Source: Candidatus Jordarchaeales archaeon (lineage in GTDB: Archaea > Asgardarchaeota > Jordiarchaeia > Jordiarchaeales > Freyrarchaeaceae). Taken from it: DNA of 27,075 nt. Positions 18,273 through 24,422 of the stretch are shown one piece after another. The notes beneath the pieces were generated by a model. It ran no database searches. It saw only the letters and a list, made by a program, of their open reading frames with translations, and was not told where the DNA came from. Every line of letters starts with the position of its first letter. Within the stretch, counting starts at the first letter, position 1. Both the position numbers and the translations under genes were made by a program. The stretch is from NCBI GenBank assembly GCA_038858525.1, contig JAWCFL010000024.1, positions 1 through 27,075 of the forward strand, written 5' to 3'.

Positions 18273-18980
18273 CTAAGTTAAAATCGGAGAACAGTGTGCT
18301 ATGCATTCCCTTCCTTCAAATTTCACTATCGCGTAATGCCATTCGTTGCCTGTAGCTTCAGAAATATAGTGGCATATGAAGGAGGCAATACCACACACTA
18401 TTGTGCCGTCAGCCCTCTCCGAAAGACCAGACTGCTTAGAAATCCTGCAGCCGTCAAACAAGAAGCAGTTCTTAATTAGTAGAAGAACGTCTCCATTTTT
18501 CTTCCTATACCTTACCTCTAGAGGGGCAGTACGCATAGAGACCAGATCACTATACGCCTTAGAAACAGCAGCTTTAATGTCTCCCCTTTTCAGCTCACCG
18601 CCATAATTTTTACGCGCAAACTTAAGAATGCTACGCTCCAATATAACTTCACTAAGACCTTGATAGCCTTCAAACTTTTTACTAACAACAAACATTGCCC
18701 ATATAAGAAGGTAAGGCGCATTTATTTTATCCATCTTAGAGGCAAGATATTCCTCAAGCTGGTCTAGTGTTTTAATGCCACTGGGGGGCTCTTCGCCGCA
18801 AAGCTTAGCTGTTCCCCGCAGAGCGTACTTAATTACGTTTGACTCAAACCCCGCGCCATAAAAGTCAACAACACCTTTCAACCCCTCAACAATAACTCTT
18901 AAGAAGGCCCTAGGGTCCTGCTGCTCGCGGGACGCCCTTCCAACCAACTTAAACAGTAAGTTTTTAAGCATAGGCATCAT
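18273..18980 (-). CDS. Hypothetical protein with a C-terminal V4R/output-domain-like Cys-rich region
   Basis: LLIKNCFLFDGC..IVCGIASFIC..ECIAHC. Confidence 0.55.
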   Translation of the reverse strand: MMPMLKNLLFKLVGRASREQQDPRAFLRVIVEGLKGVVDFYGAGFESNVIKYALRGTAKLCGEEPPSGIKTLDQLEEYLASKMDKINAPYLLIWAMFVVSKKFEGYQGLSEVILERSILKFARKNYGGELKRGDIKAAVSKAYSDLVSMRTAPLEVRYRKKNGDVLLLIKNCFLFDGCRISKQSGLSERADGTIVCGIASFICHYISEATGNEWHYAIVKFEGRECIAHCSPILT

Positions 18981-19060: not shown

Positions 19061-19390
19061 TCAGCTTTCTATTGTTTTAGCTAGCTTCGAAATTTCTAGG
19101 AGCATGTCTCGGGAGATTCTACTGGTTAATTCAAGTATTTTCTTTATGCGGTCGTCTTTTAGTTTATAGAACGATCTTTGCCCTTCTCTCCTATATTCGA
19201 GGATTCCGGAGCTTACTAGGGTTTGAAGATGCTGAGATATTGTGGACTGTGACTTTCCGATGAACGGTATTATCTCGCACTGACATTTCTCTCCCTCTTC
19301 GACGAGCTTTAATATTCTCAGTCTCGTCTCGTCCGCTAGAGCTTTCAGAAGCTCGACGTTCTTCTTCATTAGAAGTTCTTCTTTCTCCAA
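19061..19390 (-). CDS. arsR: ArsR/SmtB family regulator with alpha3 CxC
   Basis: LKALADETRLRIL, EKCQCEI, SQSTISQHL..L...G. Confidence 0.92.
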   Translation of the reverse strand: MEKEELLMKKNVELLKALADETRLRILKLVEEGEKCQCEIIPFIGKSQSTISQHLQTLVSSGILEYRREGQRSFYKLKDDRIKKILELTSRISRDMLLEISKLAKTIES

Positions 19391-19448
19391 AATTCCCCCC
19401 GACCAGAGTTCGCTCGTTTTTTCTAATTTATGTTTTAAGAATCGGAAT

Positions 19449-19490
19449 ATATTAATATTTACATGATTTCCAAGTTAAACGGCGCCGTTT
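19449..19490. promoter_or_regulatory. Palindromes ATATTAATAT (19449-19458) and AAACGGCGCCGTTT (19477-19490) in the arsR/dsr divergent promoter
   Basis: Both read directly; operator role is inferred. Confidence 0.4.
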
Positions 19491-19514
19491 TAGTTCTTCA
19501 GGGAGAGTGCTGCC

Positions 19515-19832
19515 TTGAAGGTTGTGATCGTTGTTCTCGATCCTCCCAGCTCGGACAGAGCGAGGAAGATAATGGGGCTACTAGAGGAGTTAGCTGGGCT
19601 CGGAACTGAAGTTTCAGTCTATTTTTTGGGGGACGGTGTCTATTGGGGTATAAAGGGATGCCTCGACAGGTTTGCCAACTCTAGAGCTGAATTTTTCGTA
19701 GAAGAAGGCGATCTTGAGGCGAGAGGTATTCAGAGGGAGATTCTTTCGGAGAGAGTTAACATTGTCTCAGAGATAGTTGAAAGGCTTGTTTATGAAATTA
19801 TGGAAAGGGCGGAGAGAGTCATAAGTGTTTAA
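19515..19832 (+). CDS. DsrH/TusB-like (DsrE superfamily) protein
   Basis: VYFLGDGVY, EEGDLEARG. Confidence 0.75.
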   Translation: MKVVIVVLDPPSSDRARKIMGLLEELAGLGTEVSVYFLGDGVYWGIKGCLDRFANSRAEFFVEEGDLEARGIQREILSERVNIVSEIVERLVYEIMERAERVISV

Positions 19833-19845
19833 GGAGGATTTATGT

Positions 19846-20226
19846 TTGAGGAAAACGTTGACGATAATTCTGTATCGCGGGCCTTATGCGTCCCAAAGGG
19901 TTGATGTGGGGTTGGCTATCGCAGAGAAGGCACTTGAGAGGGGATACGGTGTCAACATTTTCCTCTACATGGACGCTGTGCATGCCCCTAAAAAGGGGCA
20001 GATGCCAAGGTATTTTCCTAACGTAGGTGAGAAGCTTCGTGCCTTAGCAGAGAAGGGTGCGAGAATTAGGGCGTGCTCTCGATGCGCGGCCGCCAGAGGG
20101 TATGTAGAGGAAGACGCTAAGGATGGCGTTTACCCGACAAGCCAATATGTTGATGGAGTGGCTATAGTTAATCTGCGTGAGTTGGGGGACTGGATTAAGT
20201 TAAGCGATAAGGTGATAGTGATCTAG
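19846..20226 (+). CDS. dsrE: DsrE/TusD-like sulfurtransferase
   Basis: RGPY, IFLYMDAV, ACSRCAAARG active-site Cys; TTG 19846 follows AGGAGG. Confidence 0.85.
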   Translation: MRKTLTIILYRGPYASQRVDVGLAIAEKALERGYGVNIFLYMDAVHAPKKGQMPRYFPNVGEKLRALAEKGARIRACSRCAAARGYVEEDAKDGVYPTSQYVDGVAIVNLRELGDWIKLSDKVIVI

Positions 20227-20592
20227 GTGGTGATTGGGTTCAAGAGTGTAGTGCTGGTCATTACGAAGCCGCCTTACGGCTTGGAGGATTGCTTCAGCGG
20301 ACTCTACGTAGCGGTTGCATGCCTTAACAGTAATCTGAAGTGTAGCGTGATTTTCCTGGGTGATGGAGTTTACGCGGCTCTCGCTCATCAGAATACTGAG
20401 AAACTCTCTGTGCCGAGCGTCGAAGACGTCATCTACGCTTTGCTCCCCGAGGCGAAGCTTTACGTTCACAGGAATTCTCTGCTTGAAAGAGGAATACCCG
20501 AATCAAAAGTAGTGAAGGGTATAGAGTTAATTAATGACGCAAAGACAGCGGAACTACTATTAAGTGAGGGGGAGTGTATAATAACATTTTAG
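20227..20592 (+). CDS. dsrF: DsrF/TusC-like protein
   Basis: TKPPYG, IFLGDGVY, SLLERG. Confidence 0.8.
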   Translation: MVIGFKSVVLVITKPPYGLEDCFSGLYVAVACLNSNLKCSVIFLGDGVYAALAHQNTEKLSVPSVEDVIYALLPEAKLYVHRNSLLERGIPESKVVKGIELINDAKTAELLLSEGECIITF

Positions 20593-20847
20593 TTTTAGGC
20601 CCTTAAAAGTTATTTAGGGAAGTGAAGGGTTGAAGGCGGACACAAATGGCTCCCCGCTAACGGAAACATGAATATGGCGTAGCTGAGTTTTTGAGTGTGT
20701 AATTCAATTTCCGTTAGTTATTTTTTGGTCTGCGACTTCATTGTTGAAGAAGTCATTAATTTGAATATAACGATAAATTTAAAAGGAAAAACTCTTTAAT
20801 TCACTCTTAGAGTTTTATTGCTGTTTATCGTTAAAAGGGTGAACTTC

Positions 20848-21132
20848 GTGTCGAAAGTCAAAGTTGATATTTTCATCCCTATCGGTGCTTGTGCATGCCA
20901 GTTCGCCGGCTTCATGGACAAAGTGTTTAACGTGCTCGTGAAGTATCGTGACAAAGTGGAATTTGAGATTAAGTCGTCACTCTCAGATGAAGCTAAAAAC
21001 TACAAGATCGGCAGTAAAGGCGTTGTCCTGAACGGCGTAGAAGTTTTTACGGAGCATTTTAAGCCAGATAAGCTTGAGAAAGCCATAGAACAAGCAATTA
21101 AGAAGATTGAAGAAGGAAAAGTGGAAACTTAG
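20848..21132 (+). CDS. Small thioredoxin-fold protein with a CxC motif
   Basis: VDIFIPIGACACQF..GVVLNG; GTG start after GGGTGA. Confidence 0.65.
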   Translation: MSKVKVDIFIPIGACACQFAGFMDKVFNVLVKYRDKVEFEIKSSLSDEAKNYKIGSKGVVLNGVEVFTEHFKPDKLEKAIEQAIKKIEEGKVET

Positions 21133-21142
21133 TTTTCTTCGC

Positions 21143-21616
21143 TTATTTTTTAATCGATTTTTGCTTTTCAATTCTTTTCTGTTCTTCTCTTATTTTGAAC
21201 TCAACTAGCTTAGCGTATTCTTCAGCGTTCATTAGGTTAGCAGTGTCCGCTTCGAAGTTTCTTGGCTCGACCTTCAGCAACCACCCCTCACCGTAAGGAT
21301 TCTGGTTTAAGAGCTCAGGTTCGTCTTTGATTCTAGAATTCACCTCAACGACGCGGCCGCTTATTGGGGAATAGATTCCCATGACGGCTTTAACCGATTC
21401 GAGTTCTCCTATCTCTTCAGCGGTGTTAATCTCGCATCCTTCTTCTGGCAGGTTTACGTATAGGATGTCGCCCAGCAACAGCTGGAAATAGTCCGTTATC
21501 CCAATAACTGCTGGTGACGCTTCTCTCACCCAGGTATCATGCTGAGAATAGAGAAGCCCTCTAGGGATTTTTATGATGAATTTACCGGAGGCAACCTCTA
21601 TAGCGTCAATCATCAT
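21143..21616 (-). CDS. gcvH: GcvH-like lipoyl carrier protein
   Basis: GITDY, LGDILYV, ELESVKAV (lipoyl Lys), SPISGRVVEVN, NPYGEGWL; N-terminal extension; no gcvT/P/L in the window. Confidence 0.92.
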   Translation of the reverse strand: MMIDAIEVASGKFIIKIPRGLLYSQHDTWVREASPAVIGITDYFQLLLGDILYVNLPEEGCEINTAEEIGELESVKAVMGIYSPISGRVVEVNSRIKDEPELLNQNPYGEGWLLKVEPRNFEADTANLMNAEEYAKLVEFKIREEQKRIEKQKSIKK

Positions 21617-21630
21617 GTAACCTCCAGGCG

Positions 21631-22062
21631 TTAAATGTTAAACTTCATTGCTGTTTGCTTCGTCATTTCTCCTATTATTCTGTCTACTTCTTCCGCTATT
21701 TTTTCAGCTACTTTTCTGGCGAGTTTTTCACTTTCCTCGTCAAGTTTTCTCCTGGAGTTAGACTTAAGACCGTATGCTCTCATTACGTCCGAGACTCTTA
21801 TCACTGCCGCTACATTTCCACCATTCATTTTGATGACTTTCTCGGCGCATCCCTTATCGCACCCATCAACTATTATCGTAGGTTGCTTTCTGACGAAGGC
21901 ACGCTCATCCTCCTTACCTGAAATGTAGAGGGGCAAACATATGACCATCGTCTGGGTTGGTTTAAGCTCCTCCATCACGATTCGCGTAGCCACGCGCGTG
22001 ACGGTGCCCTCAGAAATTTCTTCGCCACCACAAGCCACTATGCCGATCATGGGAATCAGCAT
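21631..22062 (-). CDS. DGC-domain putative zinc-binding protein 1
   Basis: ACGG..CL..IVDGCDKGCAEK. Confidence 0.85.
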   Translation of the reverse strand: MLIPMIGIVACGGEEISEGTVTRVATRIVMEELKPTQTMVICLPLYISGKEDERAFVRKQPTIIVDGCDKGCAEKVIKMNGGNVAAVIRVSDVMRAYGLKSNSRRKLDEESEKLARKVAEKIAEEVDRIIGEMTKQTAMKFNI

Positions 22063-22065
22063 CAG

Positions 22066-22479
22066 CTACACCCCTTCGGAGTTTAATATCCTGTCGACCT
22101 CGCCGCTAACCTTCTCAGCTATTACCTCAGCCAGCTTTCTCCCCTTTTCATCGAGCTCTATCACAGACGACCTGTCAGGCTTCAAGTTCCTATATTCCCG
22201 GAGAAGTTTCGTGACCTCAAACACTACAGCAGGCTTGCCACCGGCGCTCTCCACGGCGAAGCTGGCACACTTTGAGGGGCAACCATTAATCACGATGCAA
22301 GCGTTATCTCTAACCAGCCGTCTAGCACCAACATCGTCGACTATCAGCTTTGGGAGACATACCGTTAATGTTACATCCGGTCTGAGTTCCTCGATGACCC
22401 TGTACGCCGCCTCGCGCGCTATACTCCCGTAAGTCTTCCCTACACCACTACAAGGAAGAACCACCACTTTTTTATCCAT
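22066..22479 (-). CDS. DGC-domain putative zinc-binding protein 2
   Basis: PCSGVG..CLP..INGCPSKCAS (DGC changed to NGC). Confidence 0.85.
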   Translation of the reverse strand: MDKKVVVLPCSGVGKTYGSIAREAAYRVIEELRPDVTLTVCLPKLIVDDVGARRLVRDNACIVINGCPSKCASFAVESAGGKPAVVFEVTKLLREYRNLKPDRSSVIELDEKGRKLAEVIAEKVSGEVDRILNSEGV

Positions 22480-22867
22480 AGGCAGCTTCCTCCTTAATTA
22501 TCCTTTTTAACTCCTCTTTCTCCGGAACAACTCCGACAGTTTTCACCTTTCCATTCACCACAACCACCGGAGTCAGCATTATTCTTCTCTTCCTCGCCTC
22601 CTCAACGTATGGGGCCAGCCACTCATCTATTCCCTTAAAGTCGCGCCTTTCGAAAAGCTCGTCCAGCTCGCCAGTATTAACACCTAAACTTTCGAGGAAG
22701 ATATGTGAGTCCATTATGCGCCCGTACTTTTCAGACTCATCAGAGCCGGCAAAAACGTGCGTTATCTCCATGTCTAATCCTTCTTCATTTTTTATTTCCC
22801 TAAGCATCTTGAGGATCCTACGACACCTTATGCATGGAGGATTTGGACCAATTATAACTATATGCAT
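22472..22867 (-). CDS. Thioredoxin-family redox-active disulfide protein with an internal insertion
   Basis: GPNPPCIRC..TPVVVVNG; ATG 22867 follows GTGGTGA. Confidence 0.8.
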   Translation of the reverse strand: MHIVIIGPNPPCIRCRRILKMLREIKNEEGLDMEITHVFAGSDESEKYGRIMDSHIFLESLGVNTGELDELFERRDFKGIDEWLAPYVEEARKRRIMLTPVVVVNGKVKTVGVVPEKEELKRIIKEEAAYG

Positions 22868-23153
22868 AAGTTTTTCACCACACTTAAAGTTAAAGCTCAA
22901 TACTGAACACGTCTGCTTCCTCGAGGGACATAAAGGATTATCGCTATAAAAAAATATCGTTTAACGTCAATATATTAGACTTCACATCACAGCAGAAACA
23001 TGAAAAGTAAAGAGATAGCGTAGTGCTCCTTTTATGTGAAGACGCATAAAGCACGAGAAATGACGACATTAGTGTAATAGTGACTTTGTACCAAACGCAA
23101 CGCTCTCATAAAGCGAGAATTGTACAAAAATGAAGAGGCACAGTAAAGGTCAG

Positions 23154-23336
23154 GTGAAGCGAAGGTCGTAAGAAGAGTAATAGTAGAACCTGGAGAAGGC
23201 TGAAAAGTTTAGAGGTCAACAAGAGATTATTCTTAGAACGCCAGCAGGACAGTTAGAGGAGCAACGATAGTACGCCCATTAAAAAAGTATGGGGGATTAC
23301 TATGAGGAAGCAAGAAAAGCAGAATGGAATGCCTAG
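23154..23336 (+). pseudogene. Degenerate antitoxin remnant upstream of the PIN pseudogene
   Basis: SD-like CAGGTG; broken frames ending GDYYEEARKAEWNA*; overlaps the PIN start in TA fashion. Confidence 0.4.
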
Positions 23337-23642
23337 AAAGTTTTTATGATATGAACGAAGCTCATAGAAGCCTTAAGTTCAGGAAGAACTTGACGGATAT
23401 ACGATTATTAACATCGTAGAGTTACCAAGGAGGGGTGAGGCTGGCTAACAGTCCTAGCATTTTGCTCAAGGACTACCCTAAGCAATGGAGGCATTTATGG
23501 ATAATGGTGGAGAAGAGAGAAGACACTCTTTATTCCAGCAATCAATTGCATAATTTCAGTAGCCGCGCTTGACAGAAAACTCATTATCGCGACTCGAGAC
23601 AAACAATTTTACATTCTTGAGAAGGGTCTAACCCTGAACTAG
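23324..23642 (+). pseudogene. vapC: PIN/VapC toxin pseudogene
   Basis: Fragments in different frames: ESFYDMN.., GYTIINIVELP, IPAINCIISVAALDRKLIIATRDKQF. Confidence 0.7.
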
Positions 23643-23837
23643 AAGTATCCGAAAAACGGCAAAGTATTAACTCATAGCATGATGTGCCGCTGTCATTAGG
23701 TTTCGGTTGGTTCCGCCATCAACGTTAGCATGTATCTGCTTTTCTAATTATCGACATAAAGCAATGTTTTTAAGTCGACAAATCTACTTTAGCTTGACGG
23801 TCGCCAAACACGAAAGCTAAAGAGGAGAGAATTTATT

Positions 23838-24422
23838 ATGTCAAATAAAAATACGGGCGGCAAAGGGTCATTTATCAATTTGCTGATCCCTCCAAGAGTG
23901 AGGGAAGTCAAGATAACAGAAGTTCTTCCCTGCCTCGCCGCCGAAGACAGGATACGAGTCGTGGGCAACACGGGTGAGAAACTAAGCGACCTCTTGCCAG
24001 TCATGTACCTCTATCTTCCCCAAGCAACGTATAGCAGGGAGTCGGACTCCGTGAGCTTTATGTTCGAAGAGCACCTCATCACTGTTTTTGGTGAGGGAAA
24101 AATAACAGCCACAAACCTGAAGGATAAGGATGAAGCTATACGCACTTTAAACTATGTTAAAGATCTGCTGAACAGGGCAGCGATCTACGTGAACCGGCAT
24201 GGAGTACCATCCCTCGAACTCATGAGTAGCAAGCCCAAAGTCAACCCAATCGAAATCAACAAATCCTTACCAAAAAAGGACTGCGGAGAGTGTGGCGTAT
24301 CTACATGCTATGGCTTCGCTGTAAAGCTCGCGCTCGGAGAATGCAAGCCAAGCATGTGCCCCTATCTCGACGCAAACAGCCAAAAAGAGCTACAAAAGAA
24401 AATACATTTCATTCAAATATAA
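23838..24422 (+). CDS. Fe-S-binding protein (COG4871-like; C-terminal CxxCxxxxC..CP domain)
   Basis: LPKKDCGECGVSTCYGFA..CKPSMCPYL; N-terminal PCLAAEDRIR..ITVFGEGKI domain. Confidence 0.82.
   Translation: MSNKNTGGKGSFINLLIPPRVREVKITEVLPCLAAEDRIRVVGNTGEKLSDLLPVMYLYLPQATYSRESDSVSFMFEEHLITVFGEGKITATNLKDKDEAIRTLNYVKDLLNRAAIYVNRHGVPSLELMSSKPKVNPIEINKSLPKKDCGECGVSTCYGFAVKLALGECKPSMCPYLDANSQKELQKKIHFIQI

Follow-up and report, generated by a model that had tools for sequence, protein, structure and literature searches.

Why should an Asgard archaeon keep an ArsR-type repressor beside a set of sulfur carriers, a lipoyl carrier and several small cysteine proteins? Such a cluster occupies positions 19061-24422 of contig JAWCFL010000024.1 of Candidatus Jordarchaeales archaeon (GenBank assembly GCA_038858525.1). 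This contig, analysed over its whole length of 27,075 nucleotides (nt) and called the window here, is part of a 2.09-Mb genome that is 92.7% complete, and its DNA is contained in hot-spring metagenomes of several studies. An earlier reading of the letters alone (the original prediction) had grouped nine of the genes as a candidate metalloid and sulfane-sulfur module, and that interpretation as a whole is partly supported. Both gene sets of the cluster are found inside arsenic (ars) islands of other microbes, and the cluster is therefore probably an undescribed part of arsenic or thio-arsenic defence. The best explanation of its content is that of two modules. Module 1 would combine a PF04060 Fe-S protein with a DsrH-DsrE-DsrF complex in which one subunit has a reactive CxxC. 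Module 2 would comprise a lipoylated GcvH-like carrier, a DGC-A/DGC-B heterodimer, a CxxC Thioredoxin_3 (Trx_3) and a small CxC protein. The window joins both modules under one ArsR.

All nine predicted open reading frames were recovered in place and matched the families proposed for them (Pfam, NCBIfam). The list of nine was incomplete, since a tenth gene, for the PF04060 Fe-S protein that is the tightest partner of the DsrEFH set, had been overlooked, and the starts of the small CxC gene (GTG 20848) and probably of Trx_3 (ATG 22867) are revised here. The arsR gene is divergent from a translationally coupled dsrH-dsrE-dsrF set (19515-20592), in which dsrH overlaps dsrE by 8 nt and dsrE and dsrF have no gap between them. 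The small CxC gene follows about 255 nt after dsrF, and a trx3-DGC-A-DGC-B-gcvH operon (22900 down to 21143) converges upon it. Spacing within the latter also fits an operon, with an 8-nt overlap between trx3 and DGC-A and gaps of 3 nt (DGC-A/DGC-B) and 14 nt (DGC-B/gcvH).

Genomic neighbourhoods of the two modules

Species-representative genomes were scanned with the A-type DGC protein. The best 80 loci of 172 relatives were kept and, together with three further loci and the window, gave 84 loci, whose open reading frames were clustered and the cluster representatives named by Pfam and NCBIfam. Neighbours called Acr3 and ArsM exceed the curated NCBIfam cut-offs; the ArsC-like and ArsP assignments are by Pfam only. 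GcvH is present in 77 of the 84 loci, OsmC (after DGC-B) in 68, ArsR in 56 and Acr3 in 50, followed by Lpd-like proteins and Trx_3 (42 each), radical SAM proteins (36), LplA (35), ArsM (31), an ArsC-like low-molecular-weight (LMW) phosphatase (24), PF04060 Fe-S proteins (21) and the ArsP_1 permease (15). The commonest order is DUF1462-GcvH-DGCa-DGCb-OsmC-Lpd. A comparison of neighbourhoods across prokaryotes had been proposed as a check, and its outcome was favourable: among the 65 loci of at least 8 kb, which come from many phyla, 50 contain Acr3, ArsM, ArsC-like or ArsP genes, 51 contain ArsR and 46 encode a transporter of the ars type. The DGC/GcvH module is a component of ars islands.

Module 1 was followed through its DsrE protein, whose closest relatives outside the Asgard lineage are 45-55% identical. 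In Methanothrix harundinacea (CP003117) an Acr3-ArsR pair is succeeded by ArsR~FeS-DsrE-DsrF-DsrH-Fer4-ArsC-like-ArsM, where ~ marks a fusion, and then by DGC-Trx_3. One contig (L132) repeats the Methanothrix-like layout with ArsP-ArsR added, and another (L131) reads arsR-acr3-dsrH-dsrE-dsrF-FeS, with the H-E-F order of the window, an order also kept in loci L020, L025 and L214. Two other contigs with DsrE relatives carry DUF166-DsrE-DsrF-FeS-DsrH, one of them with an ArsM-like methylase and an Lpd-like gene nearby, and one inspected contig had no ars context. A metagenome scan with this DsrE clade gave 80 loci, and genes were counted in the 39 of at least 6 kb. PF04060 Fe-S proteins are present in all 39, DsrF in 37, DsrH in 35, ArsR in 32 and Acr3 in 22; ArsC-like proteins (16), rhodanese (15), ArsP (14), ArsM and DGC (12 each) and Trx_3 (11) are less frequent, and GcvH is found in none. 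When the DsrE sequences were clustered at 75% identity, 11 clusters included a long locus, and all 11 have an ars gene close by. The DsrHEF set is likewise a component of ars islands, with the Fe-S protein as constant partner.

The cluster was also expected to be conserved, which it is: close relatives have it as a syntenic block, and other Jord- and Freyarchaeia have it rearranged. A relative with 81% DsrE identity has all ten genes, in unchanged order and orientation, between differing outer flanks, and two contigs of the Jordarchaeia metagenome-assembled genome QC4 together span both halves of the cluster. Jordarchaeaceae contigs show ArsR divergent from DsrH-E-F, small CxC, DUF5714 and two LplA genes, followed by DGC pairs and a DGC~GcvH fusion. 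On a Freyarchaeota chromosome ArsR is divergent from small CxC-DGC-DGC, with DGC~GcvH-DGC-DGC further along and Acr3 2.1 kb on. Among the loci compared, DsrHEF is joined to the DGC/GcvH module in this Asgard group only. In the literature searched, on DsrE together with ars genes and on thioarsenate together with sulfurtransferases, neither module is described.

The metalloid reading of the original prediction is upheld in that both halves of the cluster adjoin Acr3, ArsM, ArsC-like and ArsP genes in unrelated lineages. These neighbourhoods, the synteny, the clade to which GcvH belongs and the DGC pair (both described below) leave the arsenic link well supported by context, and the gene-neighbourhood evidence for an arsenic role, drawn from two independent modules, is strong.

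Proteins of the cluster and candidate operators

The GcvH-like lipoyl carrier (21143-21616, minus strand) matches PF01597 (E 2e-38, 131 bits) and, with 134 bits, exceeds the TIGR00527 cut-off of 115.9; its lipoyl lysine is retained (ESVKA). It had been noted as standing without GcvT, GcvP and the L protein. The first two are indeed missing, as no PF01571 or PF02347 match was found in the 92.7%-complete genome, and the third has a candidate of the Pyr_redox_2/dim type on contig C32 of the genome. A tree of 85 GcvH sequences was built from 76 DGC-linked proteins, the three paralogues of this genome and six sequences from three of five other genomes searched. In it the window's GcvH does not group with the GcvT-adjacent H protein; it falls in one clade with all 76 DGC-linked proteins (SH-aLRT 97), as judged against a small outgroup of 8 sequences outside the clade, two of which are the genome's other paralogues, and with a long stem to the window's subclade. 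The GcvT-adjacent protein, from Anaeromyxobacter, groups with the paralogue on contig C11. The lipoyl lysine is retained in all full-length members of the DGC-linked clade. On these data the window's GcvH does not serve glycine cleavage in this genome. The two additional paralogues lie on contig C11 (locus L001, 1486-1899, canonical-like) and on contig C2 (L003, 1435-1890), the latter copy (ETGKW) having a membrane-hydrogenase gene on one side and a SelD-like gene on the other. Contig C9 (L014, 5108-9866) has a cluster made up of two radical-SAM genes, an LplA~DUF116 fusion and an FAD oxidoreductase; this cluster, of the lipoate-assembly type, adjoins an MtmB-like gene and a PIN/MazE pair.

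The two DGC-domain proteins are of different types. DGC-B (21631-22062, minus strand; CGGEE..., DGCDKGC) matches PF08859 with 56.5 bits and DGC-A (22066-22479, minus strand; PCSGVGK..., NGCPSKC) with 54.5 bits, against a cut-off of 27. DGC-A is followed by DGC-B in nearly all loci, and each protein has four invariant or nearly invariant cysteines (C10, C41, C67 and C71 in one, C11, C42, C68 and C72 in the other). Modelled as a pair, the two gave an ipSAE of 0.71 against 0.00 for the best control, with three runs agreeing in at least 92% of contacts and a partner pLDDT of 87. This ipSAE level is reached by 58 of 80 solved complexes and by 2 of 110 mismatched pairs, counts which hold only roughly here because self-made alignments were used. 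DGC-A and DGC-B are thus predicted by modelling to form a heterodimer, with an interface that includes the conserved cysteine motifs of both chains. The DGC-A model (pLDDT 92.9) has an alpha/beta fold of alternating strands and helices. Foldseek found nothing in the PDB at E <= 1e-3, nor did a profile search of PDB sequences, and the best VIA-align match is an uncharacterised Wolinella protein (3pu6, Z 9.2), with generic alpha/beta folds next (Z 7-8). No lead to a function comes from the fold. A second DGC-A/DGC-B pair is encoded on contig C41 (L011, 7992-8832) without GcvH or Trx_3, beside two KaiC-like ATPases. Serine replaces the second conserved cysteine in its DGC-B copy, and the same pair is present in Jordarchaeum (L098). 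A third DGC subtype (CFGGFSNTG...) follows the A/B pair on some Jord- and Freyarchaeia contigs (L025, 10955-11362; L027, 1470-1880).

Two thioredoxin-fold proteins accompany them. The Thioredoxin_3 protein (22472-22900, minus strand), MTH895/ArsE-like with a CIRC motif, matches PF13192 with 55.7 bits (cut-off 24.8) and TIGR00412 with 38 bits, under the cut-off of 62. Its start is probably ATG 22867, giving 131 amino acids (aa), as the orthologues found ahead of DGC-A in L017 and L214 are 128-131 aa long. Fusions of DGC with Trx_3, as well as with GcvH, occur in related loci. The small CxC protein (20848-21132, plus strand, 94 aa) was called from 20818; the GTG start at 20848 is taken from orthologues (59-83% identical; L020, L023, L024, L025) that begin MSKVKV, in which the CxC at the start of helix 1 is invariant. 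It has no Pfam match. Its AlphaFold model (pLDDT 84.8) shows a thioredoxin-type order of strands and helices, and Foldseek matches in the PDB are nearly all thioredoxins (probability about 1, best E 6e-3).

On the other side of the cluster, the plus-strand DsrHEF set consists of a DsrH/TusB-like subunit of 105 aa (19515-19832; PF04077, 26.6 bits, cut-off 24.4), a DsrE/TusD-like subunit (19825-20226; PF02635, E 3e-20) with the motif ACSRCAAARG, and a DsrF/TusC-like subunit (20227-20592; PF02635, E 1.5e-13) that lacks the active-site cysteine. The reactive motif C-x2-C-AAARG is confined to E among the three, and there it is unchanged, as C(S/V)RCAAARG, in 17 relatives. None of the subunits reaches the equivalog level of TusD, TusC or TusB (32.7 bits against 89; TIGR03010, 43.8 against 94; TIGR03011, 32.5 against 49), and no PF04358 match, and hence no DsrC/TusE acceptor, was found in the genome. 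A separate DsrE-TusA pair lies on contig C16.

The PF04060 Fe-S protein (23838-24422, plus strand, 194 aa; E 1e-11) is encoded divergently from trx3, and a protein of the same length has the same position in L214. An ESM Atlas look-up of it returned unnamed PF04060 clusters only. In Methanothrix a PF04060 Fe-S domain is fused to an ArsR-type helix-turn-helix (HTH) directly upstream of dsrE (L106, 5157-5987; L132, 5192-5986), a fusion which suggests a possible sensory or regulatory role for the Fe-S protein. The spacer between trx3 and the Fe-S gene (22901-23837) is 937 bp long, purine-rich and free of open reading frames; it matches no Rfam family and resembles nothing, at the protein or the DNA level, in the rest of the genome or in the loci that were fetched. 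The corresponding spacer is 585 bp in L214, and a TnpB gene lies inside it in L023. Parts of dsrE/F, the small CxC gene, gcvH, both DGC genes, trx3 and the Fe-S gene are covered at 95-99% likeness by short contigs of one metatranscriptomic library, which has none over arsR. Short contigs from an RNA library also span 23431-23665 and 23718-24011. As contigs of such a library may contain DNA, they are not taken as evidence of transcription.

ArsR (19061-19390, minus strand) is an ArsR/SmtB-family repressor of 109 aa that exceeds the cut-offs of PF01022 HTH_5 (E 1.3e-14, 54.3 bits, cut-off 22) and NF033788 (87.4 bits, cut-off 55). It contains only two cysteines, both in the CxC of EKCQCEI. The placing of this CxC at the alpha-3 position was borne out, as EKCQCEI aligns with the ELCVC/ERCVC of most of the 73 ArsRs in DGC/GcvH loci. 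In a scan of the genome it was the sole member of its ArsR cluster detected. A Cys-rich protein of 235 aa is encoded 80 nt downstream of arsR on the same strand (18273-18980, minus); it has no Pfam or NCBIfam match and is not kept beside arsR in relatives.

The spacer between arsR and dsrH contains a conserved AT-rich palindromic element (19441-19466), a candidate ArsR operator of about 25 nt with the core AATAT-N4-ATATT followed by TACAT. The element is near-identical and in the same place in four further genomes (loci L213, L214, L020, L021, L025), the surrounding spacer having diverged. A 9-mer, AATATATTA, occurs twice in the 27-kb window, once in each promoter region, and at least two copies anywhere were seen in 7 of 100 shuffles. 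Its second copy (22969-22977) lies upstream of the trx3-DGC-DGC-gcvH operon and, with the bases after it, is identical to the arsR/dsrH element at 17 of 26 positions, which is weak evidence; judged from sequence, it is a possible second operator half-site. Acr3, ArsM and an ArsC-like LMW phosphatase are encoded on contigs C7, C3 and C31. Motif-like sites upstream of Acr3 have 5 mismatches and were not counted as operator copies. In the acr3 promoter region (L012, 9385-9500) a stretch of about 60 bp is directly repeated in tandem, with AAATATTTAAATAATTAGAT at the end of each copy, perhaps as a duplicated promoter or operator. The arsM gene is preceded, with a 4-nt overlap, by a gene for a 114-aa AbrB/SpoVT-like protein with a Cys-rich N-terminus, MCCDDLSCYG (L215, 3114-3458), a candidate for an arsenic-responsive regulator other than ArsR.

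Proposed mechanism and alternative explanations

The setting would be sulfidic, arsenic-rich hot-spring water, in which arsenic would enter the cell largely sulfur-bound. As(III) would release ArsR from the shared promoter elements. DsrE, as a cysteine persulfide carrier, would then take sulfane sulfur from As-S species, in the manner of rhodanese acting on thiosulfate, or would use its CxxC to bind As(III). The resulting persulfide or arsenic-thiol adduct could be passed on or reduced by the Fe-S protein, the thioredoxins, the DGC pair and the dihydrolipoyl arm of GcvH, their dithiols (lipoyl, CxxC, CxC and the DGC cysteine cluster) resolving persulfides or binding As(III), and the As(III) would be left to the unlinked Acr3 pump and ArsM. 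Lipoic acid is a classic target of arsenite. That the cluster handles arsenic or another metalloid through cysteine and lipoyl chemistry, as an accessory to defence and under an As(III)-type ArsR, has in our estimate a probability of roughly 55%. The chemistry itself, whether a thiol/persulfide relay or a desulfuration of thio-arsenic, we infer only.

A bolder version, to which we give a low probability, would make the cluster the first enzymatic route for thiolated arsenic, with DsrHEF-FeS stripping sulfane sulfur from thioarsenates or methyl-thioarsenates (or adding it) and the lipoyl-GcvH/DGC/thioredoxin chain resolving the persulfide or As-dithiol adduct. Sulfidic waters, an alkaline hot spring of this kind among them, readily give rise to thioarsenates; enzymes that act on these compounds are not known and their turnover is unexplained, as is the response of DsrE/F-like genes to arsenite in Thioalkalivibrio (PMC6620896). 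If this version were true, lipoic acid would gain a dedicated role in arsenic detoxification, and genes would be named for a geochemically important transformation that so far has none. With a sulfur-carrier set and a lipoyl-carrier set recurring in arsenic islands of many bacterial and archaeal phyla, both are candidates for the missing thioarsenate chemistry or, failing that, for an unrecognised layer of arsenic defence. Three families without described function gain a context, namely DGC, stand-alone PF04060 proteins and an orphan GcvH clade, and cultured carriers exist in Methanothrix harundinacea and Anaeromyxobacter sp. PSR-1.

Several observations weigh against an arsenic role of the cluster as a whole. 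All of the functional evidence is gene neighbourhood. The window itself has no arsenic transporter, reductase or methylase; the original prediction had reported no arsB, acr3, arsC or sHdr genes here, which stands for the window, and the genome does have Acr3, ArsM and ArsC-like genes on other contigs. OsmC and Lpd, the commonest partners of GcvH-DGC in other loci, are missing from the cluster. The absence of GcvH from the 39 Methanothrix-type DsrEFH-FeS loci means that the two modules need not cooperate. With two cysteines in all, ArsR lacks the third (Cys37) of the R773 site, although in R773 ArsR this third cysteine is dispensable for induction, and the CxC could instead respond to other soft metals or close into a disulfide. 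Across the genome the bare palindrome AATAT-N4-ATATT has 4 occurrences where chance would give 3.2, so that no regulon can be read from it, and the spacer element may overlap the dsrH TATA box or simply be that box; control of the cluster by ArsR is for both reasons treated as hypothetical. With an AbrB-type gene of its own upstream, ArsM may also lie outside any regulon of this ArsR.

Sulfur chemistry alone might account for the same genes. In that case ArsR would sense sulfane sulfur by its CxC, DsrEFH would carry persulfide, the lipoyl, thioredoxin and DGC proteins would reduce it, all in the service of persulfide and polysulfide homeostasis, and arsenic genes would be frequent neighbours only since sulfide and arsenic stress coincide. 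ArsR-family persulfide sensors do exist (sHdrR, SoxR, BigR; PMC10451225, PMC12423496), and DsrE-family proteins are sulfur carriers. The window contains genes for a cysteine synthase, IscS/SufS, IscU, FdhD and a thioredoxin-reductase-like protein, and TauE-type exporters flank the module in L017 and L020. The original prediction had set this ArsR apart from the persulfide sensors, and we concur: its match to BigR (NF040642) is weak, at 42 bits against a cut-off of 155, it has no second, distal cysteine beyond the CxC, and an alpha-3 CxC is common to ArsRs of ars islands. A separate DsrE-TusA pair serves general sulfur trafficking, and the enriched neighbours are Acr3, ArsM, ArsC-like and ArsP, the clustering of neighbourhoods having yielded no gene family of sulfide or sulfite oxidation. 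We therefore consider sulfur homeostasis unlikely to be the function.

The frequency of OsmC and Lpd-like genes in the 84 loci raises a different possibility, in which a metalloid-induced relay from Lpd through lipoyl-GcvH to an OsmC/Ohr-type protein would defend against peroxide and thiol stress, handling the damage done by arsenic and not arsenic itself, with the DGC and thioredoxin proteins as extra redox partners. That Ohr/OsmC peroxidases are reduced by lipoylated proteins is established. However, no OsmC was detected in this genome and there is no Lpd in the cluster, the Asgard versions carrying Trx_3, the small CxC protein, DsrHEF and the Fe-S protein in their place, and such a relay would leave unexplained why DsrEFH-FeS lies directly inside arsR-acr3 operons. 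For the window this explanation appears quite improbable.

It is very unlikely that the cluster is directed at selenium or another soft metal or metalloid (Sb, Cd, Hg) in place of arsenic. Matches to NCBIfam families of selenoprotein operons were obtained (TsoR, 53.5 bits; SaoT, E 0.0019; TsoX, E 0.0096), yet all lie far under the cut-offs (115 bits for TsoR, 17.9 against 65 for SaoT, 16.1 against 52 for TsoX). SelD, a Se/S carrier, a cysteine-desulfurase-like gene and TusA stand beside the module in L022, but this is the only one of the neighbourhoods inspected gene by gene with selenium genes there. A GcvH paralogue near a SelD-like gene and a Cad transporter near one DsrEFH-FeS locus would also suit such a role; the recurrent neighbours, with Acr3 and ArsM above curated cut-offs, are arsenic-specific.

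Hardly credible is a chance row of housekeeping genes, with DsrEFH relaying sulfur for tRNA thiolation or cofactors in the manner of TusBCD, GcvH in glycine cleavage or a lipoyl relay and ArsR as an unrelated metal regulator, for although GcvH passes an equivalog cut-off, the DsrEFH genes weakly match TusB/C/D and Fe-S and cysteine genes lie nearby, those Tus scores are far under cut-off, the genome is without GcvT, GcvP and DsrC/TusE, the window's GcvH belongs to the DGC-linked clade with the C11 paralogue as the canonical-like one, and ArsR is part of the conserved block, whose modules turn up repeatedly in ars islands.

Comparison with known systems

The sHdr-LbpA system (PMC6067878, PMC10332631, 10.1101/2023.12.18.572138) resembles the cluster in having a GcvH-like lipoyl carrier outside glycine cleavage, placed next to DsrE-family sulfur carriers and with an ArsR-family regulator present. 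The gene layout on contig C9 also matches that of the LipS1/LipS2 pathway (lipS1-slpl(AB)-lipT-lipS2; PMC10332631). However, Hdr-like genes are missing from the window and from the surroundings of every GcvH paralogue; the genome has about a dozen CCG-domain genes, none of them on the window's contig or beside a GcvH paralogue, so that the linkage typical of LbpA is lacking. The cluster has no TusA, carries a DsrH-E-F trio instead of DsrE3, and has DGC proteins, Trx_3 and the PF04060 Fe-S protein instead; in other lineages the neighbours of its modules are arsenic genes, not sulfur-oxidation genes.

With the DsrEFH of sulfur oxidisers and the TusBCD of E. coli the window shares three paralogous small subunits of the DsrE/DsrH family and a reactive cysteine motif on E only. 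It differs from them in its H-E-F order, in Tus scores far under cut-off and in a genome without DsrC/TusE, and its set has the PF04060 Fe-S protein as constant partner in a context of arsenic genes. In the lipoyl-dependent OsmC/Ohr/AhpD relays, which run from Lpd through a lipoyl protein to a peroxidase, a lipoyl carrier is likewise the dithiol donor to small cysteine proteins, and OsmC and Lpd adjoin the bacterial modules; OsmC is missing from this genome and Lpd from this cluster, and the DGC pair has no counterpart in those relays.

Closer in content is an operon of Pseudodesulfovibrio mercurii ND132, ArsR5-ArsP-ArsE(PF13192)-DGC(PF08859), described by annotation only (10.1101/2022.10.17.512643). 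As in the window, a Thioredoxin_3 gene is followed by DGC under an ArsR, but that operon has a single DGC and neither GcvH nor DsrEFH. Compared with canonical ars operons (ArsR-Acr3-ArsC-ArsM/ArsP), the window has no transporter, reductase or methylase and holds ten accessory genes without a described function in arsenic resistance; it shares with them an ArsR with the alpha-3 CxC, and modules homologous to its own are found in or beside ars genes in many lineages.

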